From assembly GCA_050084515.1 (NCBI GenBank), contig CM114271.1:35960001-36024000 (forward strand): DNA of 64,000 nt, written 5' to 3'. The DNA comes from Blasia pusilla. Lineage: Eukaryota. Under the pieces are notes generated by a model. That model did no database searches. It saw nothing but the letters and a program-made list of their open reading frames with translations, and was not told the origin of the DNA. Positions 20,297-60,200 of the stretch are shown here, in pieces. A program made the translations under genes and the position numbers. The stretch's first letter is position 1; every line of letters begins with the position of its first letter.

Positions 20297-20853
20297 TCGA
20301 GGTACGGAAACTTAGTCGGACAATCCCAGCGTAAACAAGAATATGTTACTGCCTTACACCAGCAGCATTCCCGAGTGGGCATCTGCTATCTCTGGCGAGC
20401 TGACTTAATTCAGCACAGCGATGTATGGCGGGTCTTCTTCCCTGTCCAGACCGACCGTGAGTGCCGATGAACCTAGAAAACACCCCGCAGTTCTAGACAC
20501 GAAAGAAGCTCTTGCTTTGGGGCGGTTCCAAACTTCCCGAATATGGAGCAGCAGGGTGGCCATCCATGAACGACGCTGCGGGTACGCGGTCAGCGGCTAC
20601 AGGACCAGGCTAACGGCAGCAGTGCCCCACAATTATCCACCCAACGAGGTCCGTAGGTATTCCCGGTTCGTTGATCGTCCACGTCCAACTGGGAAGTCGG
20701 AGGCGAGGTCTTGTCTGTCCGTGTACTTTGTGGGATAGTGAAAGAGGAGAGAGCAGTGTATAGCAGTAGCAGATGTGTCTTATCCTCTCTCGCGACTTCG
20801 CCACTCTCGTCGAGGATTAAACGCTTATCCCAAGTGTGTTGGCACAAGCGGCC

Positions 20854-21720
20854 ATGGCGACTACCTCCTGGCCCGAGAGGCTTGCCACTCAACCGCTCGG
20901 ACTTTCGTCCTCATCGCTTAGCAGGAAATCGTCATCGGCGGATGCCAAGCGCGTGTTCTGTGCCCCTGCAGCGCGAGAATTCAAGAATGCCAGTTCTGTT
21001 GTGAGAGCCAGTTTGGCGAAGGATGCTGGCAGAGTCGCAGCGTCGGGACTAGCAGCATTTGGGTTGTCCGCGTTGTTGCAATTCTCGCCTATTTCGGCTC
21101 CCCCTGCCAATGCCAACGAGTCGACTATCTTGCAATTCGGGCCTCCGAAGGAAGGATATGTGTTAGATGATGCGAGCGTGTTGAACCGTGTCACGAAGTC
21201 AGAGCTGAAGAGTCTCTTAAAGGAAGCAGAGGAAAAAGATGGTTACCACATTAACATGATCACCCTGCGCAAGCTGACCTCTAAAGCTGATGCCTTCGAA
21301 TTTGCCGACCAGGTGTTGGAGAAGTGGTACCCGACGATCGAAGAAGGCGACAAGAAGGGTATTGTGCTGCTTGTGACCACCCAGAAGGAAGGAGCAGTCA
21401 CCGGTGGACCTGCATTTGTGAAAGCTGTGGGTGACGAAGTACTGGAAGCCGTGACCGCTGAAAATCTGCCGGTTCTGGCCGTGGATGAGAAGTACAACGA
21501 GGCTTTCAGCAGCACTGCGAAGCGACTGATCGACGCCATTAGAGGTCTACCCGATGCTGGTGGTCCGAAATTCCAAGAGACCAAGAGGGAGTCAAACTTC
21601 AAAACGAAAGAGGAAACCGCTGAGAAGCGGGGACAGTTCTCACTTGTCGTCGGAGGCCTTTTGGTGATCGCATTTGTGGTTCCCATGGCCCAATACTATG
21701 CGTATGTCTCCAAGAAGTGA
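20854..21720 (+). CDS. TLP18.3: Thylakoid lumen TPM-domain protein (TLP18.3/Psb32, UPF0603 At1g54780-like), 288 aa, single exon
   Basis: First ATG at 20854 (GCCATGG). Ser/Ala/Arg-rich transit peptide, then a hydrophobic lumen signal ending A-N-A. TPM domain VLDDASVLNRVTK...RKLTSKADAFEFADQVLEKWYP...GIVLLVTTQKEGAVTGGP; conserved RESNFKTKEET; C-terminal TM helix VVGGLLVIAFVVPMAQYYAY. Confidence 0.95.
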   Translation: MATTSWPERLATQPLGLSSSSLSRKSSSADAKRVFCAPAAREFKNASSVVRASLAKDAGRVAASGLAAFGLSALLQFSPISAPPANANESTILQFGPPKEGYVLDDASVLNRVTKSELKSLLKEAEEKDGYHINMITLRKLTSKADAFEFADQVLEKWYPTIEEGDKKGIVLLVTTQKEGAVTGGPAFVKAVGDEVLEAVTAENLPVLAVDEKYNEAFSSTAKRLIDAIRGLPDAGGPKFQETKRESNFKTKEETAEKRGQFSLVVGGLLVIAFVVPMAQYYAYVSKK

Positions 21721-32910: not shown

Positions 32911-35900
32911 CTCTTGAACTTGCCCAGGTAATTCTACCCCTTCATGGTAGTTTCTCAATGATATCATTACCTTTTGTAAATCTTGTAACATTTGAAAGTA
33001 TTTGTCTTCTTTAGGGTCTAACCCTTCTTACAAAGAGTATTCTACGTATGGATACTCTTTGTAGGAAGGGCTTTTGCACCTCCACCCAGCGGATGGGAAA
33101 AATGTGGTTCAATCCTAGCCAGAAGTAAAACCAAATTAAATCCCTCTCTATATTAGAGTCAAATTAAAAATTGAGACGGAAAGTGAGGAAAGAACATAGG
33201 AAAACAAGACACAAATAAAATAAAATAAAAACCAAAGGAGAAAAAATGTTTTCAGAAATTGAAAAAAGGAGATACTCCAAACCATATGCAGAAAAATTAT
33301 TCAAATCTAAATTCTTAGGAAGGAAACCGCTGGTCATGTATTAAAACTGGGAAAAAAGAAACTTGCCGGGGAAACCTGAATAGCATGCAAAATACTGTCG
33401 ACCCGGAGGCCGGAAGTGCAGTGCACGAAAAAATTGGGCAAAATGTGCACAGGAAGAAGTGCATTTATAATCGCTTCCATAAAGATAAAGGCTCGCTGGC
33501 ACTTCATTGTCCCCGTTTAATTCGATGGAAAACCCCCCTGATGAGGAATCATGGAGGATGATGCCACCAAACGAATGCACATGATGCAACTAATGTCTGT
33601 TTTAACTGCACACTCAGTGCAGAGCACACACTAAAAGATGAGCCCCCGACCGCCACCTTCCTCGTGAAGTGACGTGAACGATATGATCCACCAACTGCCG
33701 GCTTGTAATCGGCTACCTGTCCACAGTTCAAAGACACGACGTTGACCAATAAGAGCGTGCTGCTACACTTCGAACATGGGATTTTGATTACTTGCGTGCT
33801 AAGGTATCAAGAGTTGAAGGATGTCTGGCCTAGTACATTTCAATTCTCCAACAAAGGAAAAGAACACCCGATGTTCACAATACGTGGCAGGTATTCTTGA
33901 GTTGCACGTGGAATACCTAAGGTTCTGAAATATAGCATCCACCAATTCCAGGATCATAAAAGGAACAGCCATTGAACCCCACTATCCAAATTTCTACGTT
34001 GAACCCATTCTCGAACGTTTCTTAACTTATCATGACATGCACCATCAGGAGGCTTTTCAACATAAGCTGGCAATTTACCTTTCAACATCCCAATACCCGG
34101 CGTCCACCCCATTAGTCTTAGAGTGGAAAGCTTTAGAATGCGCAAGTACTACTTTCTTCAGGACATTTTGATTACCTTTGGGTGTCGAGTTCAAAGAGAG
34201 GGAGTAGGGGCCGGCTATTGGGAATTCAGCGGTCTGGATCTCTAAACTCGTAAAAAAATAACACGGCTAATTAATACTAATACGGTGGACACTATGGACA
34301 CTAACAGGGTGGAGTTCACATCCTTTCGTTAAAAAAATTCATGTCCGATTGTTTAAAAATTCATATCAGAGCTTGCAGGCTCTGCACTCGACTATTGTCG
34401 TAAACTAATGGGTTCTCATGGGCCGTAATTACTTGCGGTTGGGCTGAGTGGACTCGATCTTCTGAGGCACTAGAACCGACCATTCAGTGATCAAAAGACA
34501 GCATGAAACTCAGCTCCCAACAGCAGCTGCGGTTTTGAACATAAGCAATTAAGGACACATGCAACAGCGCAACCCAGATTGGGCGAGTAAGCGCTGCAGC
34601 AACCTCGACAATAGGATCCCCACTTCTGGTGGCATACGTTTGTGAAACTCGTGTAAGACGACAACAGTGACCATTTCAAATCTCCAATGAATGAGGAGAA
34701 CCATCGCAGCAGAAATATGTGTTCTTGCCGAAAGTAGTGTGAGGAGGAAAATTTCGCTAAACTCACCAGTGAACTAAAGAAGCGGTCTGTACGGATAATT
34801 ACAGAAATGACGGAAAGCAACTTGAGCCAACGGTGTGCTTTCATTCGGGAAAGCTTGAATTTCGTGTAATCGGAAGATTATGAAGCTAATCACCTCAAAT
34901 GTGTGTATCCCAAGAATTTCAACGTTTCCAGCAAAGCACAGAAAACCCAATTACGAGGCTACATCTCCGAGTCTCACTGATTATGAAAATGCTTTCAACA
35001 TCCCGTTGTGGTTCGTAAGCACAACCATGTTGTGCTATCTTTTAATATGGACAGGGACAGCGCAAAGACATAATCCTAAGAATTAATTAGATTGAGGAGC
35101 ACAGATCAATCTCGTATTTACAAAGATGAGGGGCAAGTGAATCGTCTCAAAGAGACGTCGTGTGGCAAGTGAAGTAGTCAAGCGACTCCTTCGTCCCCAA
35201 TCTCTCTTCTTTCGGGTCTATCCTCGCAAATCCTTGACAGTCACTACTTATTGAGTTCCATATCTTCTAGCTTCTAAAAAGCTTCGTGGTCCATTTTCCT
35301 ATTTCTCAGTAGCACGGGGTGGTCTTCCCGAAAGAAGAGGTAGGAAGCAGAAACAGAACAGCCTCGTCTTGAACCGGAGCTCCACAAGGCCTGACAGTGC
35401 ACCGTGACACGCCCCATTAATAGAAGTTCTGTGGTCTTCCCCACTCCGTAAGAATGTCGGAACACCTTTCACCCCACCCGTTGCATGTTGCCCAGCACCT
35501 ATTCAGCTTTTGGAGATCGACGATCGCAAAAGCAAGGAATTTGTGATATCATCTCTGACCACTACCACTACTCGTGTCGTGAAAAGTAGGAAAAGTAAAT
35601 TTGGGGGAAACCTAGATTAGCCAGCGTGAACTTCTCAGTTCGTTGCGTCAGAGTAATCAGATCTGATGTTGGTCCCGAGACTTCACTAATGTATGTCAGC
35701 AGTAGCTAAGCTTGTGATCCACCCTTTTAGCAAGACAGACGTAATCCCTGCCCGAAACGCCTTTCACTGTGTGCCAGTTAAAAGGCGTTACAAATCATTG
35801 GAGCCATGGACAAACTTCGAGCAGTTCATTTGAGATCAAATTCAGTGTATCCTTTCTGAAGATTTTTTCTCATAGTGCTCTGCCTGCATAATAGATTTTC

Positions 35901-36515
35901 CCGGAGCCAAAGAAAAAATCATGTTTTGAAGAATCATTGAGAGTTGACATTTCCTACCCTGTACTACTTGCATCTGCATGTAAAAGATAGATATTGAAAT
36001 CGCTCCTCCGCCAGAAAATGCTCAAGTCATCGAGTTGCACCGGATGCCTTCACTCCCTCCTACGAGTTCTTCTTTGCGAACCTTACCTCGTCATTTATCT
36101 ACAGCTAAACTCTGAAACTGTGAATATCATGCAAATGGATGCATGATATGATTCTTCACGTTCTGTATTAGCTCTACAATCTCCTCCTAAGGGTACAAGA
36201 TACATGCGTTCGGCTTGTAAAATTTTGAACTCCAGCGGTTCTAGATCTAATCCTCTATCCAAAAACTGCTCTTAACTCGCTCCACATCCAAAGACTGGAA
36301 AATTAATCGATCTAAAGCTACTTGTTACAAGAACTGCTCCCCTCTCATCATGAACCGATGGTTGGGATTTCTAAGAGAACTATACAATTCATTCATCCTG
36401 ATGGCCTTGGACACTACTGCTGCAGTTCAGCGTCAAATCGAAGGGATTGAAGGCCCACTTCATGTGGCCTCTCTAGATGTCCTCGTCGATCGCAAATCGT
36501 TGCTAGGAGCCTCAG

Positions 36516-37703
36516 CTACAATTCCTTACTGTCGAATGGTTCTGCAGCGTCGGACCACACTTTCCGCCAGTAACCCAAAGGTTTGCTGAAGAGTTTATCT
36601 GCAGTGCTGAAATTTATTTCTTCCATCTTATCCACAGCAAGAGGGTATAGATCCAATTGACTCGATGCTATCTTAATACCGAAAGTAGGGGCGAAAGGAA
36701 AGTCGGAGCCGAAGGTGATTTGATTGTTTGGGATGAATGCGACAGTGCTAGGCAACGCTGAAGGGCTCGAAGCCAGGGCCGTGTCCACGTAAAAGCTCTT
36801 GAGCTGCTCCATCGTGATCTCGAGATTCCTCCTCGACAGGAAGGTCAAAGCACCTGCCATACGATACGCAGCGAAGGGCATGAATCCTCCAGAATGAGAC
36901 AGAATGAACTTAATGTTGGGATAGCGCCCGATGACATCTTTGAGCACCAGATTGGCTGCTGCGCGGGTGGTGTCCAGAAGGAAGTCCATCACGAAATCAG
37001 GAACTCCAGTGTCTTCAACATGCTCCGGTTTTGGTGGTACTGGTATGCTATTGGGATGAACAAAGACCACAGCGTCACGCGCATTCAGCACCTCCATCAA
37101 TGGATCAAATTTCTTACTGCCCAGATACTCTCCCTCGGAGTTGGCGAGAAGCACCACACCGGCAGCTTTCAGGGTGTCCAGAGCATAGATCGCTTCCGCG
37201 ATGGAACCCTCCACGTCTGGGAGCGTAAGCGTGGCCCAGAACTGGAAACGCCCTGGATGAGTCAAGGCCAACATGTGGCCATACTCGTTCAGCTTGCGGG
37301 CGAGCTTCCGGCCTGCGTCCAAGGTTTCACCCTCCAAACGAGCACCGGGTGCGGAGATGGCGACAATAGCTGTTTCAATGTGCAAATCATCCATGAGATT
37401 CAGGTGCTCTGAAACATTCCATTTCGGGATAGGTCTCCCCCCCGAGCTCAAGCCCTTTTGCTTCAAAATGTCGTAGTAGAACGGAGGAATGAAGTGTGCA
37501 TGAGTGTCGATCCTCCTGTCTGGAACAAAGATCCCTCTCTGCGCCTGTTCAACAACATTAATGGCTGAAGGAGATGCAGGTGAAAGCACAAAGTGTCTGA
37601 TCAATGCGAGAAGCACCAAGGCTCGCGTGACATAACGCCAGGTCGCAATTCTCTTCGTATCCTTACTTGGTTTTGAAATCTGCTGAGAACTTCTGGAGTC
37701 CAT
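36516..37703 (-). CDS. Amidohydrolase-2 family metal-dependent decarboxylase (6-methylsalicylate decarboxylase / ACMSD-like), 395 aa, single exon
   Basis: First ATG at 37703 (the ORF-track start is GTG). Motifs RIDTHAH (HxH), VFVHP, DFLLDTTRAA, RYPNIKFILSHSGG, FYVDTA and FGSDFPF (catalytic Asp) are intact. ~55-aa N-terminal extension with a hydrophobic stretch; C-terminal tail ends DSKEL. Confidence 0.93.
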   Translation of the reverse strand: MDSRSSQQISKPSKDTKRIATWRYVTRALVLLALIRHFVLSPASPSAINVVEQAQRGIFVPDRRIDTHAHFIPPFYYDILKQKGLSSGGRPIPKWNVSEHLNLMDDLHIETAIVAISAPGARLEGETLDAGRKLARKLNEYGHMLALTHPGRFQFWATLTLPDVEGSIAEAIYALDTLKAAGVVLLANSEGEYLGSKKFDPLMEVLNARDAVVFVHPNSIPVPPKPEHVEDTGVPDFVMDFLLDTTRAAANLVLKDVIGRYPNIKFILSHSGGFMPFAAYRMAGALTFLSRRNLEITMEQLKSFYVDTALASSPSALPSTVAFIPNNQITFGSDFPFAPTFGIKIASSQLDLYPLAVDKMEEINFSTADKLFSKPLGYWRKVWSDAAEPFDSKEL

Positions 37704-38532
37704 TTGGAAACCTACACTCTTGTGAAGCTCACCACCGACAGCGTCCACGAAATCCGCTTCTTAAGTACTTAAGAGATCTACAGACCGGTACCGATGAAGA
37801 ATACGACTGACCTCTACAATAGCGCTCACCGGCTACAGATTCGCTTCCTCTCCTTGTCCAGATGACGCTCGATCGAGGGATATAAGTCCTTCCCAATGCT
37901 TGATCGTTTAAATGTAAAACGCTCAAGCACCTTCCAAGCGTGTGAATCAAAGAGTCACGTGGAGACTCCGGGTTTAGTCAACTTGAGGAATCAGTGAAGA
38001 TTGCACCGAAGAGAGACCTCAGCAGCAAGGACGGCGCGGGAGTGCTGTGACAGTTGGTGAGGTGACGCGGAGCTTAGCTGGTAAGCTCAACACCCTCCGC
38101 CTAAACAACGCGTTCACCTAGACTCATCGCTCACCACCAAAGCTATCGGTGGAGTCTAGATAAATGTTCGAGTAAGTTCTGAAATCCGATTCTAACACAG
38201 ATCAGATGACTTCTGCTCTGCTGAAGGTCAGGATGACTCGATCTGTTGGGTCCGCCAAGTCGTAGACACTCATCACTTGCGGTTGATTTACGCTAGGACA
38301 GGATATCTGTCGTAGGACCTGCAATCGCCAGTGAATCTTCCGAGAAACGCTCACATCGTCGGCCTTCACAAACACGAGCTTGGGTAGTCTACCCAAAGAC
38401 TCTCCACCTCGTGGTCGTTGACGAGGGCCCTGGCCCAGTGAATGGGGCCCAGTCTGGCATGGCTACGCAATTTCATTATTTATGCTATACGGCACAGAGC
38501 ATCTTTTCATTCTCAGCCTGTCCCCGTGTGGG

Positions 38533-38729
38533 TCCCCTGGTCTAGAGTCTGGACCATGCCGGCCAGCCCGCGGGCTGCCCGGCATGGTCCAGAGTAAAAC
38601 TTTCTCCGTTCCTGGCGGGCTGCGACGTTGCTCGTGTGATTGAGGGTGCCCATTTGCTCAACCCTTGCACATTCACGTGCTGTTTCGAGGAAGGGCCAGG
38701 GAGGCACCAGGTGTCTAGACTCTAGGGGA
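38533..38729. mobile_element. MITE-like element with imperfect TIRs and an internal 46-bp palindrome
   Basis: Left TCCCCT[GGTCT]AGAGTCTGGA vs reverse complement of right end TCCCCTAGAGTCTAGA; palindrome at 38548-38593; no TSD identified. Confidence 0.45.
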
Positions 38730-41099: not shown

Positions 41100-44000
41100 C
41101 CCCTCAAGCTTATATCGATATCTCTAACGCCTAAATCCTTTCTAAACATCTCAAACTTATCTCTAGATAATGCCTTTGTAAAGATATCAACAATTTGGTA
41201 ATCCGTACCTATATACACAAGATCAATTTCTTCTGCAAGCACTTTCTCTCTGATAAAATGATAATGCACCTCAACATGCTTTGTACGAGCATGAAACACA
41301 GGGTTATTAGCAAGCTTGATGCTACTAATATTTTCTGCATATATTACACTAGGTCCTAAGTTACTAACACCAATCTCAACAAGTAATCGATAAAGCCACA
41401 CCGCTTCACATGCTGCATTGGTTGCTCCTCTGTACTCAGCCTCTGTTGAAGATAAAGCAAATGTGGGTTGCTTCTTTGAAGCCCAACTTATAGATGCGCT
41501 TCCCAAAGTAAATGAATAACCAGATGTGGAGTGTTGATCAGACATGCTTCTTGCCCAATTAGCATTTGTGAATCCTTGTAATTGAAAACTCGGAGAAGGT
41601 TCAAATTGAAGCCCAAATTGAATAGAGAATTTCACATACCGCATAATCCTCCTCACAGCAACAAGGTGAGGTTTTCGAGGTGCTTGCATAAACTAGCTCA
41701 CTAGGCCAACAACATAGCTCAAATCTCGTCTGGTTATACTTAGATAGATCAAACTTCCAACCATGCGCCTATACATATTAGAAACTGCAAGCAGCTCTCC
41801 TTCATCGACTCTTTGCTTTACACTCTGGTCTAACGGTATAGAGATTGGCTTACAAGCCGTCATACCATATTTTGAAAGCATATGAAGAGCATATTGTCGT
41901 TGTAGTAACCACATACTCTCTCCAACCTTGATTAACTCAATACCAAGGAAGTATTTGAGTTCTCCGAAGTCCTTCATATCAAATTCTCCTTGTAAATTAA
42001 GCTTGACTTGTTCTACCATTTCTTCAGTACTCCCAGTAATCAAGAGATCACCAACATACAACACAATGAGAACTGTGTGATCTTATCCTCTCAAGATATA
42101 TAACGAGGAGTCAGAATCACATATCTTAAAATCCAACTCTTGTAGGACGTATGTAATCTTGCTAAAAGAAGCTCTTGGAGCTTGTTTGAGCATGTATAGA
42201 GCTTTCTTCAACCTGTATACGGGAAATGGAAACTTGGGATGCTCGTATCCAGATGGTTAAGTCATATATACCTCCTCGTATAGATCTCCATTGAAGAAGG
42301 CATTCTTGACGTCCATGTGATGTAATCTCCACTTCTTACTTACTGCAACTGTAACCATTGTTCTCGTAGTCACCATCTTTGCAACACAGCTAAATTTTTC
42401 CTCATAATCGATATCATATTGTTGTGCATAGCCCTTAGCCACTAATCTCACTTTGTATCTGTTAATTGTACCATCTTGATTGCGCTTGATTTTGTAAATC
42501 CATTTGCAACCAATAGCTTCCTTACCGGAAGGTATATCAAGCAGCTCCCATGTTTGTTGATGTCTTAATAGAGCAAGCTCTTCCTCCATAGCTTCAATCC
42601 ATTTGACTTTACTTGCAGCTTCTTCAAAAAAACTCGGCTCCTGCTGTTGAAGGGTAGTCATCCTATATGCATGATATGTCGCAAGGAAACCTTCATTTCT
42701 GAATCTATGAACTTGATATGTAACTCTACTTGATCTACAAAGTTGTTGTTTAGAGGTAGATGCCTGTGACACCTCACTCGAGCTCTCACTAGTGTCAATA
42801 GACTGAATATGTACTCTTCCCGTCCATGGACTCACAAATTTAATTGATAAATCTAGGACCTCTCCTAATCTTGCACTAGTACTTGGGGAAGTTGAAGACA
42901 ATGTCTGTTGGTTTATAGTCATATTCTCCCCCTCAACAGACAAGTTTAAAGGTGGAATAGGCTCAGATGGAGCATACCATGACTTTAGCTGATCAAAGAC
43001 AACATCCCGACTAATAATAAGCTGCCTAGAAGATGGAATATAGCACTGATACCCCTTAGTTCCATCAGCATAGCCAATGAAGATACATCTTTCAGACTTG
43101 GGGTCTAATTTCTGACGTCTCTCTTAGAAGGAACATGAGCATAACAGATACAACCAAATACTTTCAAGAAAGAAAAATCAGGTTTACTTCATGTGAAGAC
43201 TTCAAATGGAGTTTTATCATGAACTCCTGCTGTTGGAGTTCGGTTGATTAAGAAGACTGCACATGCTATTGCCTCTACCCAATACACCTTAGGCATGTTC
43301 TTCTCATTCAACATGGCTCTTGCCGCTTCAGTAATATGTCAATTTTTCCTCTCAACCACTCCATTTTGTTGTGGAGTGTAACGGCAAGTCACTTGATGTT
43401 GGATGCCATTCTGACGTAAATAGTCATCAAACTCTATTGAAAGATACTCTCCTCCTCCATCACAACGCAATTTTAGAATGTGTTGTCTAGTCTGTTTCTT
43501 TACTAGAACTCTAAATGTTTGGAACACTGAGAATACCTCTGACTTGGCTTTCAAAAAGTATACCCATATATACCTAGAGAAGTCATAAGTATATGAAACA
43601 AAGTACTGGAAACCACTAAGGCTATGTTGTGATGCTGTCCACACATCACTGTGGATCAACTCCAATATCTTGGATGCTCTTCTACCTTGCTTTGGAAAAG
43701 GAAATCTAGCTTTTTTTCCAAATTGGCAAGCAGGACACACCTCTAACGTAGGAAGACTTGCTAATTTAGGGAGTCCCATTACTATATTAGATGATGAAAG
43801 ACTCTGTAATCTTTGAAGATTCATAGGTCCAATTCTTTTATGCCACACATTTAGATTTGTAACTTGTTGGCCGGTTTGACCATACATTGATGTTTGAATC
43901 TCTGGCATAGAAACATCTAATTTGAACATTCTGCTAGATCTAGTTCCTTTGGCTATCGTAGTCTGATCATTCATTATTTCAGTGAAACAACCATCTGCGT

Positions 44001-45270
44001 TAAACTTCATTTGATAACCCTGTTCTACTATCTGTCCTACAGAGATCAGATTTCTTGCAATGGTAGGAACATAGAGAACATTTCCAAGAGCACAAAGACC
44101 ATCTGATGCTATTGGAACTTTACCGGTATGCGTTATATGATGCAGAGTGTCATCTTATGTGAGCACAATTGTAGGATCTTTCACCGGCTCCAAACTACTG
44201 AACCATTTTGCTTGTGAGGTCATGTGATTTTATGCACCGGAGTTAATGTACCAATCTGTTGTCTAGTCTTTCTTGACCATTGCTCCCATATGATGAGTCA
44301 TGACCAAGACATGCTCCGTTTGTGAATGTTGCTGTTTTTGGTACTGCTCTTGATGTTGTTGCTCCACATAGTTTTGTTGTTGTAAGGCTCCTGTTCTCAT
44401 ATCTGCCTTCTTCTTGAAGCAAAACTTTGCATAGTCACCCTTTATCTCACAGTAATTGCAAGATCCAGGGACCCTCTGCTGTTGACCTCGACCCCAACGG
44501 TTTCCACCATCACCGCCATGTGATTGTGTCTGATACTAGTTCGTAGTTGATTGAGTGACGTTATATTGAGTGCCTCTTCCTCCATATGCTTGATATCCAC
44601 CACGACCACGGAAGTTTTTGCCATGACCCCTGCCTCTGTTTGATCCATAACTTGCAAATAGCGCACTCTCTTGCAGACTAGACGAGCTACCGCTGCCTAT
44701 TAGATGCATCTCTTCATTGATCAACAGAGGAACTAAATTTGAAAGGTTGGATACTTCTCTCTCACAGAGATATAGGTCTCAAAGGACTTGTAATCCTTTG
44801 GAAGGCCTTGAAGAGTGAATAAGATCAGATCATCATCTTCTACTGTTACTCCAATGCTATTCAACTGATCAACAATATGTCTGATACTCAAAATATAATC
44901 ATTGATCCTCTGCGATCCTTTCCTCACTTCGTTCAATTTCTGTTTCAATTGAAGCTTTCTGGCCTTTATAGATGTTTGGAACAGCTTTTCCAATGCATCC
45001 CAGGCCTCCTTCGGAATATCAACATCTTGGATTTGATCTATCATTGGCGAACTGATTGTTATTGAAATGTAGTGGATTACTTGCCTTGCGCGTTTGTTCC
45101 AAGCGCGAACATTCAAGTCTGTTGAGTCATCTTCTGGCTTGGCCTCATCACATGTGACAAGCTCCCATAGTTCTTGATCCATGAGAAATTGTTTCATGCG
45201 AAACTTCAAGACATTGTAATTATGCTTGTTTAGCTTCTCGTCTATGATTGCTGCTCATAAATACTCCATG
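41100..45270 (-). pseudogene. Copia A gag-pol polyprotein, disrupted
   Basis: Fragments for gag (LQGLPKDY), integrase (LIHSDVW, TPQQNGVVERKN), RT (GCKWIYKIK, YKVRLVAKGY, LYVGDLLI) and RNase H (SSTEAEY, NPVFHARTKH, DIFTKAL), separated by stops and frameshifts. Confidence 0.92.
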
Positions 45271-45683
45271 ATAAACGATTTCACTCACAAAAAATGCAAT
45301 TTAAGGTTTTCTATTGCTCCAATGGAAGCGTAGACCACTCTTTCACAAAAATTGATGTGAAATTTTCCAAAATTGATCAATTGTATGAAGGAACTAGTCG
45401 AAATTGGCCTATAGAGAGCAAACTACACAAATTTTCTTCACTAATTGCACTTTCCTACACTAAAATTGATGACGCAGGAGCTCAGAGTGTCAGAATCGAC
45501 CGAGAAAGCCCTAAAAAATGCCTCTAAAGTTTTATCACCATCAAAGCTCCACTTGAAATCTGCACCCATTGAGCTCTGAATAAAGTTTCCTTCTCCCAAA
45601 TTGAAAATTTTCCTTCTCTTGCCTCTCTTCTCTCTTCAAACACCAAGAATTTCAAGTGATGTTCTCCTCCCGCTGTGATACAA

Positions 45684-45997
45684 TGTGGAAAACTACTAAA
45701 CTAGTATAACTCGTGGAAAACGACTTTTACACACACACACATCACCATGGAGAACGAAATTTGCAATGAGAGAATGAGTGGAGGCTGGTCCTCTTCTCAA
45801 TTATATAGGGTATGTACGAGAAACCCTAACCCTATCCTTAACCATAATCTCGAGTTAGCCTAACTGCGATTAACTAACCCTAGTTAAGATAACCTTGCTT
45901 AACTGACTAATCAAGATTAAGCTTCCCTACTTCGTGTGAGTGCCAAATGTAGCAGTTCACGTGTCTCATGAGCTTGACTGTAATGCAAACTTCAATA
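45684..45997 (-). repeat. 5' LTR of Copia A
   Basis: Adjacent to the PBS; followed on the + strand by the TSD AATCC. Confidence 0.95.
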
Positions 45998-46002
45998 AAT
46001 CC

Positions 46003-49000
46003 TAGTAACGCTACTCCATAAACCACCTAGGTCATATTACTATGACTCCTCCGAAGGCTAAGTCGAAACCATCAATCTAGGCTTCTCCTCATTCAAGGGG
46101 GTCGATCAAATTAATGGTGCCGAGAGAAGTGGATGTTGAGAATTCAACAACCCCCCCTTAATATCCACTCTTGGGTGGACTAGTGTCTTGGACCGATGCC
46201 AAGACCATTCAGATGTCGTTGAAGCTAATCTCCGCTCAAGGCTTTGGTGAAGACTTTTGCACGGTTATCCTCTATTGGACAATAGACTAACTTCAAAACC
46301 TCTCTCTCGATCAACTTATGAACAAAATGATAGTGGATCTCTATGAGCTTTGTACAAGCATGAAACACAGGATTATCCGCTATGGAAATGTAACTCTGAT
46401 TGTCATACCACATTACAATAGCACTTTCTCGTGCTTCTCCTATGTCCTCCAATATCCATCACAACCATACTACTTCACAACAAGCATAACAAGCCCCCTT
46501 ATACTCTGCCTTGGTAGAAGAAAGAGCCACCGTAAGTTGCTTCTTGCTGACCCACGACACCACACCTAATCCTACCAAGAAATAATCTCCCAAAACTGAT
46601 ATCCAAGAATCTGAGTCTCCTGCCCAATCCGAGTGACAAAAGGCTGTAATTTCCATCCCTATTCCATAGGTGATGATGTAATCGATAGTGCCTTTGATAT
46701 ACTTCAACACACGCATACCTGCCTTCCAATGATTCTCACGAGGCTTAGTTGAGAAGCTACTCAACACTCCCATAGTAAAGCTAATGTTTGGTCTTGTGTT
46801 GCACAAAAATATCAAATTGCCCACAAGCTTTCTGTACAACTTTTCATCTACCAATGGTGAAACATCCTTCATTGAGAGGGTCAAATCTACATCCATTGGC
46901 CAGACCACTTCCTTACACTCGGTCATCCAGAATGCCTTCAAGATTTCTCTAACATACTTTTGCTGCGAGAGAAAAATAAAAATGTGACTGTTGCAAAATC
47001 TCCAACCCTATAAAGTAGTGCAAAAGATCTAAATCTGACATTTCAAACTCATATTTCAACACTTCCATCATTTCCTTTATTTTCTTATTATGGTCTCTTG
47101 TGATGATCAGATCATCCACATACAGAACTATTAACATATACATCCCATCTTTGCAAAACACATACAAATTTGCTTCTAACGGACTCTTGATGAGACCCTT
47201 CTCTCGAAATAATGTATCTATTCGTTGATACCATACCCTTGGGGCTTGCTTCAATCCATACAATGCTTGACGAAGCAAACACACTTTCTCTTATGATCCG
47301 AGTGTCTCAAAACCTGGTGGTTGAGATACATACACCTCCTCCTTGAGACTCCCATTCAGAAATGCAGACTTCACATTGTATTGGCATACATGCCGATGTC
47401 TTGTTCTTGCCACCGCTAGAATAATTTGAATGGTTTTCATCTTGCAGTAGGAGCAAAAGTCCCATAGTAATCAAAACCTTTGATATGTGAACATCCTTGT
47501 GCAACCAACCTCGCTTTGAGTTTATCCAATATACCGTCCGACTTGTACTTGGTCTTGTACACCCACTTGGTGCGTATTATCTTCCTACTCTTTGATTTCT
47601 CAACCAAAGTCCACGTTTCATTTCTTTGAATAATGTCCATCTCCATTTGCATGGCCTTTCTCCATTGAGGATGAGCAAGGGCCTCATCCAAGCATGATGG
47701 CTCTTTCACCTTCAAGACCTCTGTCATCAAGGCCATGTTGACGAGATGTGCGGAAGCTCTATTTTGCTCTTCTAGTCTCTTGGATCTCCTTGGATGTGTA
47801 ACAACTTCATCACTTGTTGGTGGATCCTTACCATCCAAGAGCTGCTTTATCCACTTAGGGTTTGAAGACCATAGTGGAAGAGCAAGCAACTCTTTGTAAT
47901 CATCACCAAATTCTTCTTCTTGATGATCCGGTGTAAACATTAATGGTGTGCTGTGGTGGTTCGTCTTTTCGTTTGATGATAATATGGACGGACCACTGAT
48001 ATCCGCCACTTGACAAGGCTATTCCTAGAATACCACATAACGACTCACAAGCATCTTCTTTGCCTCAGGACACCATAGGCGATAAGCTTTAAACTCATCA
48101 CTTTATCCCATAAAGATGCACTTCCTCCTCTTGGAATCGAACTTGGTCTTGGATGCTACAAGAATATGTACAAAGCACTCGCTACCAAAATTCCTGAAGT
48201 GTTGGACTGATGTTTCCTTACTTGAGTATGCTTGATAAGGAGTCATGCCTTGCATTGACTTGGTAGCACTTCTATTTAGAATATAAATGGCAGTATAAAC
48301 GACTTCAACCCAAAATCCTTTTGTTAAACCTTTTGCTTTCATCATACATCTTGCCATATCCACCATTGTACGCTTTCGATGCTCAACAACACCATTTTTT
48401 TGTGGTGTATGTGCCGTGGTTAACTGTCGCTTGATTCCATGCTCCCCCAAATATTTGTTGAATTCTATTAATAAGAATTCTCCTCCTCGTTTCTCTACGA
48501 AGCTTCTCTACATTCTTTCCTGTCTCATTCTCAACCAGCTTGTGCTATACTTTAAATTTTATAAAAGCACTTGCCTTACCACGAAGGAAATACACCCACA
48601 TCTTCCTACTATAATCGTTGACAACTAAAAAGAAATACGACGAACTACCTAATGCCAATGTTCTCATTCTACCACATAGGTTAGCATATATAAACTCTAG
48701 AGGAGCCTTTGCTCTATTTCTGGACTCTTGTGGAAATGGTTTTCGGTATTGCTTGCCTATCATACAAGCTTCATATATATCCGATACTCCAAAAATTGTT
48801 GGTAAATCAGCAACCATGCATGATTTCTGCATCTGACTCAATAAGGGAAAGCTAGGTCATCAAAATCTTTCATGCCACAACTTACTGCTACCAAGATCTG
48901 TACCTACACTTGTCGTGAAAGCATATAACTTGTAGATGTTTCCGCACCGTATACCTTCACCCGTTACTTTCCTATTGACATCCTTAATGACTACTCCAGA

Positions 49001-54230: not shown

Positions 54231-57200
54231 CTAGTAAGGTGCCAGTGCGATGCACGGGTGTAAGAGGGAATACGAAAGATGCAAATAGGCAAGAAGGAAT
54301 CAATTTTTTTGATCTGATTTTGAAATATTTATTTTATCCAAATATTTTTTTATACACTACATTCCGTATATAGTCACCTTCCTTATTTGAATGTTCATCT
54401 CTTCCAATTGTAATGTGGATAGAACTTCTCTTCCCTACTCTAGATAATGCTACATATAATTGGCCATGAGAAAATACTGGAGTAGGCAAGTAAATGCCCA
54501 ACTTTTGCAAAGTTTGACCTTCGGACTTATTGATAGTCATAGCAAAAGCCGGTCGAATAAGGAATTGAAACTACGTAAATCAAATGGCAAACGTGAATCT
54601 GATGCAATCAATGGGATACGTGGAACAAAAATTTGATCTCCAATATTCTTCCCTGTGATAATTTCAGCATCTATGCAATGTTGCATAAATCCACGAACCA
54701 CCAATCTTGTCCCGTTTGCTTATCCATGTGCTCCATTCATGTTTTGTAACAGCATGATTGGTGCCCCAATCTTCAAACACAATCGGTACGGAGGAAGTCC
54801 TGAAGGCAAGCATGTGTTCAAAAATTCAGTTGGATATATATGAGTCATCCCCTCATTTGGAATAGAGTCCACACTGAGGTAAACTTGCTCCTATACACAA
54901 AATATAATGAGTTTGTAAGAAAAGATAATATTAATATCCAAACTTGTAATTGAATAACTCTTTTATAAAAGTTAAATGGATTACCTCTCTTGGAAACCGT
55001 GACATTACGCTTGCATTTATGTCATCTACATCTTGATTTCTCATAGTCAAAATTGCCATATCTCTCAAGAAATCAATGTCATTGAATTTGGATGGAAAAT
55101 TCCCATATATCAAATCAATAAGATCACATATCTTATTACTTTTGGTAACAATTTCAGATGGTAATTGTATAAAGTCTTCTCCCAAATGTGGATGCAAAGG
55201 TACATGACCCTCTCCCACTTCTAATAACCAATCAACAAAAGCTTATTGTTCACTACGCAAGTGACCTTCCAACCTCTTAACTCACATGTTTGTAGACAAC
55301 TTCGAATTCATGACCTTTACATTAGACCAAAGAGATGACGTCTTTATGGTGGCTTGGATGATTTGCGGCCGATCCCCATGACAAACAATGGGCAACACTT
55401 GACGAAAATCACCACCAAATACCATAAGTTTTCCACCAAATGGTAATTGTCGGTGTTCATTAGAAAAAAAACTCCCATAATATCTTGTAAAGTTTGATTT
55501 ACAGCCTCAAATGCGTGACGATGAGCCATAGGAGCTTTGTCCCATATAATGAGCATTGCATCACGGATTAAACGCTCTCCATCTCTATTAACCGATAAAC
55601 TACAATAAGAAAAGGGGAGTAAATTAGAACTTGTGCCACCAAAATTGGAGCAAATTAAAATTGTGCATCACCTGAATTGGCACTTTCTTGCAAGTAGAGC
55701 TCTCATGAAGATTGATGGGGATTTTGAATCGCAAATGTGCAGTACGTCCTCCATCTAACAATAGAGTAGCTATTCCTGATGACGACAAAACCAAAGCTAT
55801 ACCTCTTGCACTCCTTACACTTGCAAGAAGAAGATTATATAAAAATGTTTTTCCCATTCCATGTGGGCCATCGATGAAAATTTGTTTTGGAGATGGTGGA
55901 GCATCCAAGCATATTTTATCAAGCTCATCATGTATAGCATCCCAAATAATACGTTGTCCTTCATTTAGACATACTTCTCCCAATTGCACTTGCTCAAATA
56001 GTTCTTCCATATCATACAATAGCTCTTGTTCTTCCAAATATGAATTTGATTGAAGTCGTTGGAAGTCAGGTTGGGGCATGTCTGGAAAGTCAGAAAGTCT
56101 TTTTTCTTGATCTTGTAAATAATAATGGACTTCCAACAATGCAGTATTAACCATAACATCTTCAACGGGAAGATTATGAATTCCACTTTTCTACAAAATA
56201 GGATGATAACCCGAAATTGTTTAAATTGTTGAATGCTCAATAGAAGATACTATTAGGAATAAAAAAATGATGCAAGGATATTAATAGATTCTTACCAGAC
56301 GTCGTTCATATAAGAGATCTTCTACCATTGGAACCAAGAATTGACTCCAAAGTGTTGCAGTTGAGCAGTGTGTTGTACGATAGAATAATTGCAAATAGGC
56401 GACGAAGTGAAGAACCTGTACGAATTGTAGAAGCTTCTTCAAAGCAAAAGAACACTTCCCTATCATCCTCAAGAAGTCCCAATTGGATAGAAGCCTCCTT
56501 GAATATTGGACATAATATCCCATTAATAGTTCTCAAACATTCATACGTAGTTGCTCCTCGAACATGATGGAGAAGTAATCTCAACCAATGACGTTCTCCT
56601 TCACCTATGAGGAATTAAACTAAATGAGTTTATCCCAACATATAGATATATCATTTTAGAGGTGGAATATAAAAGAAATTATATACAAAGAATTTGTGAG
56701 CATTTACCAGGATGAATAAGGTATGAGCGACCAATAGGATGGCCACAACCAATTTTTTTTTTGTACCCTACGAATCCATCTCTTGTTACTCCAACGATAA
56801 TAAGAAGGAAAATCTATGTATAGATATTTTCGAGCACTGGAGTCGGATAGATTGGTTGCAAACCATTGGGTCAATATTGTCTCTCTTTTTTGTTGCAAAA
56901 TATCTCCAAGAGCGTCAACATCATTGAAGTAGATAAATTGTTGTTCCGGAAAATGGACTGCTAGTCGTACGATACTTGGAAGTTAAGCATGTTGACTAAA
57001 CTTAAAGAGATGCCAACATGCCTCCGAAGAAGATATATATCTGGAATAATGAGAATTCCAAATATTTGAGTAAGGACAATCACATGAAGTTGAGAAATAA
57101 AATATAATGCATCAGAGAAGTCAATCCATAAAATCATACCTCGCATCAAGATATGACGTTGTCTCGTAAATAACTTCGATTACATTGGATGTATCCATAT

Positions 57201-60200
57201 CCTTTGACAAATTAAATGACACACCATTAGATCCTTTATAAACATATTTGTATAAGTACTTGACATCAGAAACACTACTTGTAATCTCCAAATTAATGTG
57301 ACAATCAAATAGGGTGCATAACATCGGATTGTAAGGTACAACCCAATGATTATCCAATGAATGTTCGCTCTTAATTATCGCCCTTCCATTCTCCAATCTA
57401 CAAAAATACAATCTCAATCGTAATTAATCATGAATGAATATGTTAGAAGGAATCATGAATTCATATGCCTTAAAATAAAAGGGTCCTTACCTACGATATA
57501 TCGGATAACCATTTTTTGTTTCGGTAGTGTTGGCCGCAAAAGCCTTAGGATAGCCTTTTGTACATTTTTTTTTTCCTTGTCCATACACGGAGCATTTGGA
57601 TTTAATGGTCCATATGGCCCGTGAACCATGCAATTAGCAACGATAGAATATAACCTTGGATGGATAGATTGATCAGGGATTTCAGCTGAAATGATACGAT
57701 CATAATCAATTGTGGTGCGTGGTTTATCCTCACGACCTAAAATAATAAGGACATGCACATGCGGTAATCCTCTTTTTTGGAATTCCACCACATGGATGTA
57801 TCCTACAACTCGGCCTAATATCTGCTTCTTGATGATAAGTTGTAAAAACTCCTTCTTTTTCTTCTAAAAAACCGGCATGACCAAATCTGGTCGGTCTGCG
57901 GCTGATTGGCCAGGTAATAGAGCTGATGTAATCTCCTCCCACTTTGGATTGCATGTCATGGTTAAGAAGTAGTCAGGCTTCCAAAAATGTTGTACAATTT
58001 CCATTGCATCCTGATATAATTGATGCATATGACGTGGCCCTCCAGTAAAATAAGAAGGTAATATAATGCATTTTCCAAGCCTTCGGCTATCCGCATCTTG
58101 TCGATGCATGGCATCCCTTACACCTTGATATAATTCAACCCTCAACTCCTTCTGATTTAAGCGCACCCATGATAATCGTTGCATTTCCAGAGTGGCATAG
58201 AGGTCAACCATATATTCTTGAGTAAGTCGACGAAGCTACAATAAGTAATTGTCATCTTCTCCTCCAACCCGCGCTTGAAGTCGAAAACATGCAAATTGCA
58301 ATGCCGTAATACATTTTGTTCTTCTTTCCTCAACAATATCCCCATAAACTCTGTCCTCATCCATGCAATCATCTGAATTCTCTACAACCTTCAATTCGCC
58401 CAAAGGGTAATCCAGGATGCCAACCTGGTTCACCATAGATAAATAAAAAAACAAAGTATAAGGAAATATATGCTTCGTTGAGGTCGGATATACGTTTGAC
58501 TCCTCCTCCATAGTCGTAAAATTATATCACGATGCTCAACGTGTTCACTTCCATCACCTGGAAAAATAACAGCAACTTCAAAAGCAATTGGTAAGTTATA
58601 ACGCTTTGCATCAAGACCTCTCTTACTTGCCTTGAGGATAATCTGCATATTAAGATCACTTGCTTCATATGCCATATGACAAAATATCTTCACATATGGA
58701 TTGCATTCATGTAGCATGTCTTGGAGACCTTTCAAAATATCCATATTTAGATTAGAAGATGTAGACATAACTCTAGCACGATTTTCCAATTCATTTGTAG
58801 TATCATGGATGTATAGTTGAGCAAAATGGGGATGTCTCCCTATATCAGGATGTAAAGGTCCAATGGAATGATAGATCCCACCTTGGACCCTAAAGTGTCC
58901 ACTACCACCATTTTTTTGTTTACATGTACCCCAGTAGATGCAAGTTGAAGTGCCGAATTATAAGCTCGAGCATGTGTAAGAAAATGAACGCTTCTAGGAC
59001 CAACACCCGAAATCAAGGATTTCAGAAATGGAGGAGATGATCTCAAGAGAGGTAAGTATATTCTTCCATGGCCACAACACATTCCATATGGTGAGTCACC
59101 AAACTTAGTACCTTTGACCACTTCACATTTCCAATACAAAGCACGGCAATGAGGGACATATCTCTGTCATAGAACCTAATGTATGACGACCGCTGGTATG
59201 ATTCAAACTCCTTTGTAATTGCAACTTCCGAATATCACTTTCTTGAAAATTTGGCCTCCTTGCAAGATTGGGTAATGTATTTAATCTTACAACTCTATCA
59301 AGGGTAGACGACGCACAAATTATAGAAGCATTTGGTACATTGGCACGTTGTGGAGATAACAAAACTCCATTAGGAGACATGGCATCTACTCTTGACCTTG
59401 ATTCATCCCCGAGTTGGGCAAAAGTTAACGAATTGTTGAAAACTTCATCTTGAACAGGAATAGGAAGAGTGGTTGATGAATTGTTGACAACTTCATCTTG
59501 AACTCGAATAGGAAGAGCGGTTGACAATTTTTTGACAACTTCATCTTGAATTGGAATAGGAGGAGTGGTAGGTAACTCAACTTGTGGTGGCCCAATCGTG
59601 GATGTTTTCTCGATAACTTCATGAAATGCATTGTCAACTAACTCGAGTCTTGGCAATATATACATATAGTCCGTCGATTGTTTGCTCACTTCTTGATTTT
59701 CTTCTACTATTATTCCATCCTCATTGGAAGGCCTGAGAAAATATGTCAAAATGTGGATAAGAATAAATACAAATCAAATATGGAGTAAATCAAGTAGTTA
59801 TGAAGTGAATCAAATATAAAAAGTTAGATGTAAGTACCTATTCAATGGAATAGGTGCAATACTCTTAGGCTGAACTTGACCATTAAGCCCTTTCCTTCTT
59901 TTTCTATACAGTAATTCCTCTTTTTTTCTTTGGGAGCTTCCATTCTATCAGCTCGAATAGCACGCTTTCATTTTTGGGCTTCGCCACGTAGAACCTTCCA
60001 AAAGTCACGTATATTGACAGGATTCAATGGGATTGGAAGTTTGGAACAACACATGAATGTTAAAAGCTTATGAAATCAAATGAAAAGTCAATATTTTGTG
60101 GGGTGGGAAATTGGACATGCTAAATGAGCGTCGATGTAGTAAACTTACGTTGGAGATGTTTCAGGTCGGAGTTCATCTTCAAGATGTGTTTGTTGTGCTA

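Follow-up and report, generated by a model that had tools for sequence, protein, structure and literature searches.

Our comparisons suggest that the most likely site of action of P0001, a 395-residue decarboxylase-like protein encoded in the window (the whole 64-kb stretch of DNA analyzed here), is the endomembrane system and not the cytosol. With moderate confidence in the explanation as a whole, we posit that P0001 is a bacterial-type aromatic-acid decarboxylase that is metal-dependent and non-oxidative, with a substrate assigned by inference, and that its targeting signals were inherited from the ancestors of a liverwort family and are not peculiar to this protein. The proposal draws on an N-terminal signal found throughout the family, N-glycosylation sequons confined to liverwort sequences, and the HxEL ends of the closest orthologs, which together would place the barrel in the endomembrane lumen and suggest that one subgroup, clade A, is retained in the ER. 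That P0001 itself enters the ER lumen has good support, failed entry being the less likely outcome, and we infer its translocation and topology. An earlier note had proposed that the enzyme was retargeted to the ER/secretory pathway by acquired signals; this agrees with the hydrophobic N-terminal extension of all 32 liverwort-clade sequences, the HDEL, HEEL, and HSEL tails of orthologs, the liverwort-specific sequon columns, and an mRNA start at the first AUG, although the acquisition appears to have taken place in the ancestor of the liverwort family and not in the P0001 gene itself.

In the proposed mechanism, the ancestor of the liverwort family would have gained an N-terminal ER signal sequence on a bacterial-type decarboxylase, and the ancestor of a subgroup would have further gained a C-terminal helix and an HxEL retrieval tail. 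The basic n-region and the hydrophobic segment would engage the translocon of the ER such that the N-terminus stays on the cytosolic side, an orientation that the net charge of +5 of the n-region fits and that would place the barrel and the tail in the ER lumen. The K/HDEL receptor in the Golgi would then recognize the free, flexible xxEL terminus and the enzyme would be returned to the ER.

Gene, transcript, and catalytic core

Table 1. Features of the P0001 gene and protein, with positions in the window and residues in P0001 numbering.
Feature	Position	Strand	Remarks
Whole CDS of the Amidohydro_2 decarboxylase-like protein P0001	36516..37703	minus	Intronless; 395 codons (37703..36519) and stop codon (36516-36518); ORF and translation, Pfam, RNA-seq
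5' UTR	37704..37870	minus	Transcript 5' ends near 37836 and 37869; weak cover up to about 38250
n-region, residues 1-27, MDSRSSQQISKPSKDTKRIATWRYVTR	37623..37703	minus	Long, basic, net charge +5
Hydrophobic segment, residues 28-40, ALVLLALIRHFVL	37584..37622	minus	Apolar core of 8 aa, then R35-H36
c-region and linker, residues 41-63, SPASPSAINVVEQAQRGIFVPDR	37515..37583	minus	Proline-rich where orthologs carry A-x-A cleavage motifs
Catalytic (beta/alpha)8 barrel, residues 64-372	36588..37514	minus	Pfam, solved-structure matches, AF2, Foldseek
HxH of the barrel (H68, H70)	37494-37502	minus	
N-glycosylation sequon N96-V-S	37410..37418	minus	Column holds a sequon in 12/32 liverwort and 0/89 bacterial-like sequences
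N-glycosylation sequon N364-F-S	36606..36614	minus	P0002 has NYS at the equivalent place
C-terminal tail, residues 373-395, SKPLGYWRKVWSDAAEPFDSKEL	36519..36587	minus	23 aa; conserved helix KPLxxWRxVW, then flexible spacer
Terminal tetrapeptide SKEL	36519..36530	minus	Degenerate counterpart of HDEL/HEEL/HSEL in orthologs

The gene is transcribed (table 1). In three stranded RNA-seq runs that bear the same species label, cover is unbroken between 35900 and about 37900, and almost all of it has the orientation that libraries of this kind conventionally give for minus-strand RNA. No splice joints lie over P0001 and the signal is unbroken across the ATG, so the mRNA appears to be unspliced here. 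In run X8, 7 and 6 molecules end at 37836 and 37869, respectively, about 130–170 nt upstream of the ATG. No ATG occurs between 37704 and 38126, the P0001 start is the first AUG, and its context, CCAAATGG, is strong. The next methionine, M104, is located beyond H68 and H70, so an AUG start past the hydrophobic segment would remove the metal site. Initiation downstream of that segment, which the earlier note named as an outcome that would speak against retargeting, is ruled out for AUG starts, since the catalytic HxH is lost with every AUG further downstream. The sole difference between RNA and assembly within the CDS is synonymous (37062, Phe214 codon). Beyond the stop codon, RNA cover continues for at least 600 nt (35900–36515) at a depth equal to or above that of the CDS, which would mean that the 3' UTR is long or that there is a second transcript. 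Between the RNA-seq strain and the assembly there are five substitutions (35919–36382) and a 1-nt deletion at 36274, all within 35900–36515. About 850 nt upstream of the ATG, outside the RNA cover, we observed a palindrome with 23-nt arms that are 96% complementary and no loop (38548–38593).

P0001 matches the Pfam Amidohydro_2 model (PF04909) over residues 65–342 with 88.1 bits against a cut-off of 26.4 (E 1.1e-24), and has no match among NCBIfam profiles. The best solved structure by sequence is 2f6k (E 7e-34, residues 64–360), followed by 5-carboxyvanillate, uracil-5-carboxylate, gamma-resorcylate, ACMSD, and 2,3-dihydroxybenzoate decarboxylases. An AF2 model built on a 34-row alignment has a mean pLDDT of 86.7, with most of the barrel above 90, and the top Foldseek matches of this model are 2f6k, LigW, gamma-resorcylate decarboxylase, IDCase, and ACMSD (E 1e-14 to 2e-21), 2f6k being the best fold match (TM 0.92 on target). 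Residues D66, H68, H216, D244, H270, and D334 are invariant in the 34-row alignment A1, so the catalytic core of P0001 looks intact, and H70 is conserved in at least 90% of the rows; we take these seven residues (D66, H68, H70, H216, D244, H270, and D334) to be the metal ligands. P0001 contains no cysteine, and a tblastn search found no second copy of the gene within the 64-kb window.

Two sets of known proteins frame this assignment. The structural-genomics target 2f6k of Lactobacillus plantarum and bacterial proteins named “amidohydrolase family / 6-methylsalicylate decarboxylase” share with P0001 the barrel, the HxH motif, and the His and Asp columns; most of them start 2–14 aa before HxH and stop at the barrel end, and none ends in EL, whereas P0001 is longer by 63 aa at its N-terminal end and by 23 aa at its C-terminal end. 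The name 6-methylsalicylate decarboxylase is only a source annotation on Marchantia and metagenome homologs of P0001. The ACMSD-group decarboxylases (5-carboxyvanillate, gamma-resorcylate, 2,3-dihydroxybenzoate, and salicylate decarboxylases, IDCase, and ACMSD) are non-oxidative ortho-hydroxybenzoate decarboxylases that share the Pfam family and fold of P0001; however, they have just 16–22% identity to it in fold alignments. They are known as cytosolic enzymes, and we know of no secretory form. The features that the earlier note had read from the ORF, namely KPSKDTKR, a hydrophobic segment, NVS and NFS sequons, and a tail ending in DSKEL, are all found in the sequence, and its approximate lengths for the extension (55 aa) and the tail (20 aa) become 63 and 23 aa.

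Family relationships and the N-terminal extension

The nearest relatives of P0001 are liverwort proteins of 335–428 aa with 46–71% identity (Marchantia paleacea, M. polymorpha, Riccia, and Calypogeia), and the next are bacterial proteins of about 305–320 aa with 46–52% identity over the barrel. In a quick maximum-likelihood tree of 121 sequences and 304 barrel columns, from which extension and tail were left out and which has a midpoint root only, a branch with an SH-aLRT support of 99 separates 32 sequences from 89 prokaryote-like sequences. The 32-member clade consists of P0001, 22 sequences with a liverwort source name, and nine without an organism name. Within it, P0001 and P0002–P0006 form clade A (support 91), the sister of which is clade B, composed of P0007, P0008, and a Riccia expansion; the others are clade C (P0009, P0010, P0012, P0014, and P0018), clade D (P0019–P0024, P0026, P0029, P0035, and P0040), clade E (P0030 and P0032), and P0077. 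A profile search with 17 liverwort sequences revealed no new member of clades A–C and added just one Calypogeia protein and one Riccia fragment, and a protein search with the tail region only (residues 336–395) found P0002 alone. In clade D, P0019–P0024, P0026, and P0029 have short classic signal peptides, 5–7 sequons, and no tail and look like secreted glycoproteins from their sequences; P0019 and P0022 are among the clade D paralogs with Pro-rich linkers after the signal.

The extension is a property of the family. All 32 liverwort-clade sequences have 27–111 aa before HxH that include a hydrophobic segment (best 11-aa Kyte-Doolittle mean of at least 2.2), which answers the check on orthologs proposed in the earlier note, whereas 81 of the 89 prokaryote-like sequences have at most 14 aa there; the sequences in these counts, as in those for sequons and tails below, are related and do not represent independent events. 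The earlier note's premise that microbial members start just before the HxH motif is mostly right. However, four prokaryote-like sequences, P0037, P0039, P0041, and P0081, start with Tat-like RR (RRxF) signals and make up half of the eight with longer N-termini. Of these, P0041 branches first on the bacterial side of the tree. Given these Tat-like relatives, the liverwort signal could descend from a bacterial export signal instead of being new.

Within clade A, the extensions vary in sequence and keep their pattern. In the orthologs of P0001 a short n-region is followed by 12–14 apolar residues, often a proline, and then a small-x-small motif (ASA|, AASA|, AVSA|, or ANA|), and in all five nearest orthologs a site of this type that passes the (-3,-1) rule is located just after the h-region. 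This pattern is the anatomy of a cleaved signal peptide. The extension of P0001, which precedes R64 of RIDTHAH, departs from it. Positions 37540–37703 hold the codons of residues 1–54, in which KPSKDTKR occupies residues 11–18 and YVTRALVLLALIRHFVLSPA residues 24–43. The apolar core, ALVLLALI, is followed by R35-H36 and then FVL. By the simple rule, no signal-peptidase site is found in the 16 residues after the core, and every candidate site has a proline within -3 to +1.

These departures bear on the question of whether the segment of P0001 is an uncleaved signal anchor, as the earlier note had it, in which case the protein would be of type II, held in the membrane with the barrel and the xxEL tail on the luminal side. 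We consider this alternative rather unlikely. The long (27 aa), strongly basic n-region, with a net charge of +5 versus +1 over the 15 residues that follow the core, speaks for it, as do the missing cleavage site, with prolines at -3, -2, or +1 of every candidate, and the AF2 model, in which residues 16–40 form one continuous helix (pLDDT about 56–79). Residues 41–49, in the linker, have low pLDDT. Anchors would also have a precedent in the family: P0010, with 22 apolar residues, and P0015–P0017, with 15 apolar residues after N-terminal regions of 41–66 aa, have summed energies near or below zero and look like true signal anchors. However, the longest apolar run of P0001 is 8 aa, where about 18–20 are needed to span the bilayer, and any 19-aa window over the core contains R27, R35, and H36. 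The best such window has an energy of +6.54 kcal/mol, versus -2.5 to +0.3 for the anchor-like paralogs, on an approximate, additive hydrophobicity scale with no position weights, which makes these energies rough; the 12- and 19-residue hydrophobicity windows of P0001 are the worst or near-worst in the family. The 12–14-residue h-regions and AxA-type sites of the five nearest orthologs likewise resemble cleaved signals.

C-terminal tail, sequons, and proposed retention

The tail of P0001 lies beyond the point where bacterial homologs end. AF2 predicts a helix at residues 373–385, and the last 10-residue block has a mean pLDDT of 54, so the tetrapeptide should be accessible if the model is correct. 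The helix, KPLxxWRxVW, is common to clade A, clade B (P0007 and P0008), and clade C (P0009 and P0010; degenerate in Calypogeia). HDEL is a standard plant retrieval signal. Clade A sequences end in SKEL (P0001) and, in the five relatives, in HSEL, HDEL, HEEL, HEEL, and HEEL followed by YTC, which answers the earlier note's proposed check on xxEL tails in orthologs; P0009 of clade C ends in HTEL. The HEELYTC end belongs to P0005 of Riccia fluitans, where HEEL is three residues short of the annotated end, which means either that the gene model is faulty or that the retrieval signal is masked. A terminal EL is found in 6/34 liverwort versus 0/137 bacterial-like sequences.

The PROSITE pattern [KRHQSA]-[DENQ]-E-L, as quoted in the available text of Raykhel et al. 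(2007; PMC2140024), is matched by 3/34 liverwort sequences, all from clade A (HDEL, HEEL, and HEEL). SKEL misses the pattern because of K at -3, in line with the earlier note's description of it as non-canonical. In the human-cell experiments described in that text, AKxEL reporters accepted every residue except Pro at -3, S worked less well at -4 than K, R, or H did, ASDEL gave more Golgi signal, and a HEEL protein was ER-resident (PMC2140024). HDEL and HEEL are termed canonical signals of FKBP proteins in the portion of a second study that was available (PMC8248988). P0001 can be compared with soluble K/HDEL-retrieved ER residents, with which it shares an N-terminal hydrophobic signal and a flexible C-terminus of the form x-x-E-L, the orthologs carrying canonical HDEL or HEEL; it differs from them in a tetrapeptide that is off the PROSITE pattern, in having no rule-conforming cleavage site, and in its cargo, a bacterial-type decarboxylase and not a folding factor.

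The state of the tetrapeptide raises the alternative that P0001 enters the ER and is not retained, SKEL having decayed, and is passed on, its destination being the apoplast, the vacuole, or the oil body of oil-body cells; this route is presumed for tail-less paralogs with a signal peptide. We regard such onward export as unlikely. The missed pattern and the weakness of S at -4 in human cells (PMC2140024, available text) are consistent with it, as are the relatives: P0007 and P0008 of clade B keep the tail helix and yet end in AHSS, and clade D members have classic signal peptides, 2–7 sequons, and no tail. In contrast, P0001 keeps the terminal E-L, as do five other sequences, while the spacer before it varies freely, which points to selection on the terminus, and the tolerance of AKxEL reporters for all residues other than Pro at -3 also speaks against onward export.

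Sequons support a luminal location for the family more than for P0001. Core sequons in liverwort sequences number 87, versus 56.6 expected from shuffles, whereas the bacterial-like sequences have 29 versus 57.1 expected. At the column of residue 256 (NVT before GRYPN), 25/32 liverwort and 0/89 bacterial-like sequences have a sequon. P0001 reads DVI here and has lost the most conserved sequon of the liverwort family. Its only sequons are N96 (NVS) and N364 (NFS), a number at chance level (2 observed versus 1.25 expected from shuffles), and we rejected them as stand-alone evidence.

Four features are weaker in P0001 than in its orthologs: the h-region, the cleavage site, the tetrapeptide, and the NVT sequon. 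These weakened signals suggest that the signal may stay uncleaved, as a type II-like anchor, and that retrieval by SKEL may be inefficient. The same weakening would be expected if extension and tail were relics or had been put to another use, such as a transit peptide, a peripheral membrane helix, or oligomerization, in a cytosolic or organellar enzyme. The n-region of P0001 is rich in Ser and Lys/Arg, and P0001 has the longest end branch of clade A (0.18 vs. 0.056–0.13), both of which would suit that reading; we nevertheless judge it very improbable, given that the family conserves the hydrophobic core and the small-residue motif and not the n-region, that ortholog n-regions are short with acidic residues, that no alternative start drops the extension, and that P0001 retains the terminal EL. 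The transit-peptide version was rejected, since conservation does not extend beyond the hydrophobic core and the small-residue motif. We therefore continue to favor a location of P0001 inside the endomembrane system, through signals that it would have inherited from the ancestors of the liverwort family.

Candidate function and genomic surroundings

Titles of the Foldseek matches associate the fold group of P0001 with ortho-hydroxybenzoic acid decarboxylation. As a 6-substituted salicylic acid, lunularic acid belongs to the substrate class of ACMSD-type enzymes. The lunularic acid decarboxylase activity that Pryce and Linton described in 1974 from Conocephalum conicum is said to have been particle-bound. 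We speculate, by analogy and with considerable doubt, that the lunularic acid (bibenzyl/stilbene acid) decarboxylase, long missing, is this liverwort-wide family of bacterial origin, the members of which would be spread along the secretory route, with the HxEL clade retained in the ER and others anchored, secreted, or in oil bodies. The likeness to the Conocephalum conicum activity is that of a liverwort enzyme decarboxylating a stilbene acid (PMC12095976, available text). For lunularic acid decarboxylation in liverwort, the available text of this 2024 Radula paper cites only the enzyme preparation of Pryce and Linton (1974) (PMC12095976). Our literature search, with subscription journals and supplements outside its scope, found no cloned lunularic acid decarboxylase and no gene tied to the Conocephalum conicum activity. 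A Marchantia homolog annotated as 6-methylsalicylate decarboxylase is a mere table row in the accessible part of a KANADI study (PMC9311212).

The enzyme family and both targeting signals are textbook knowledge when taken singly. What appears new is a bacterial-type ACMSD-group decarboxylase with secretory signals in every liverwort copy examined and with an HDEL clade, a combination that our literature search did not find; among open papers, the search returned no account of a bacterial-type ACMSD-group decarboxylase family in liverworts. The family would be a clean example of a putatively horizontally acquired soluble enzyme that was given eukaryotic sorting signals and then diversified by compartment, and it provides a concrete candidate gene family for a decarboxylase acting on lunularic acid and related bibenzyl acids. 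If our interpretation is true, a step of bibenzyl/bisbibenzyl metabolism (marchantin or perrottetinene-type), or a damage-activated separation of enzyme and substrate, would be located in the endomembrane system and not in the cytosol.

We did not identify biosynthetic neighbors (polyketide synthase, reductase, or P450) by Pfam in 23 of the 33 stop-to-stop ORFs of at least 110 aa in the window, a set that misses spliced genes. On the plus strand, the G+C-richest part of the window contains a 299-aa open frame with a TPM (phosphatase-like) domain (20821–21720). On the minus strand, broken ORFs of copia-type LTR retrotransposons (gag, integrase, RVT_2, and SH3-like) occur in two sets at 41693–48507, which suggests nested or tandem elements, and ORFs with a Helitron-like N-terminal domain and a PIF1-like helicase at 55624–58235 probably represent a Helitron transposon.
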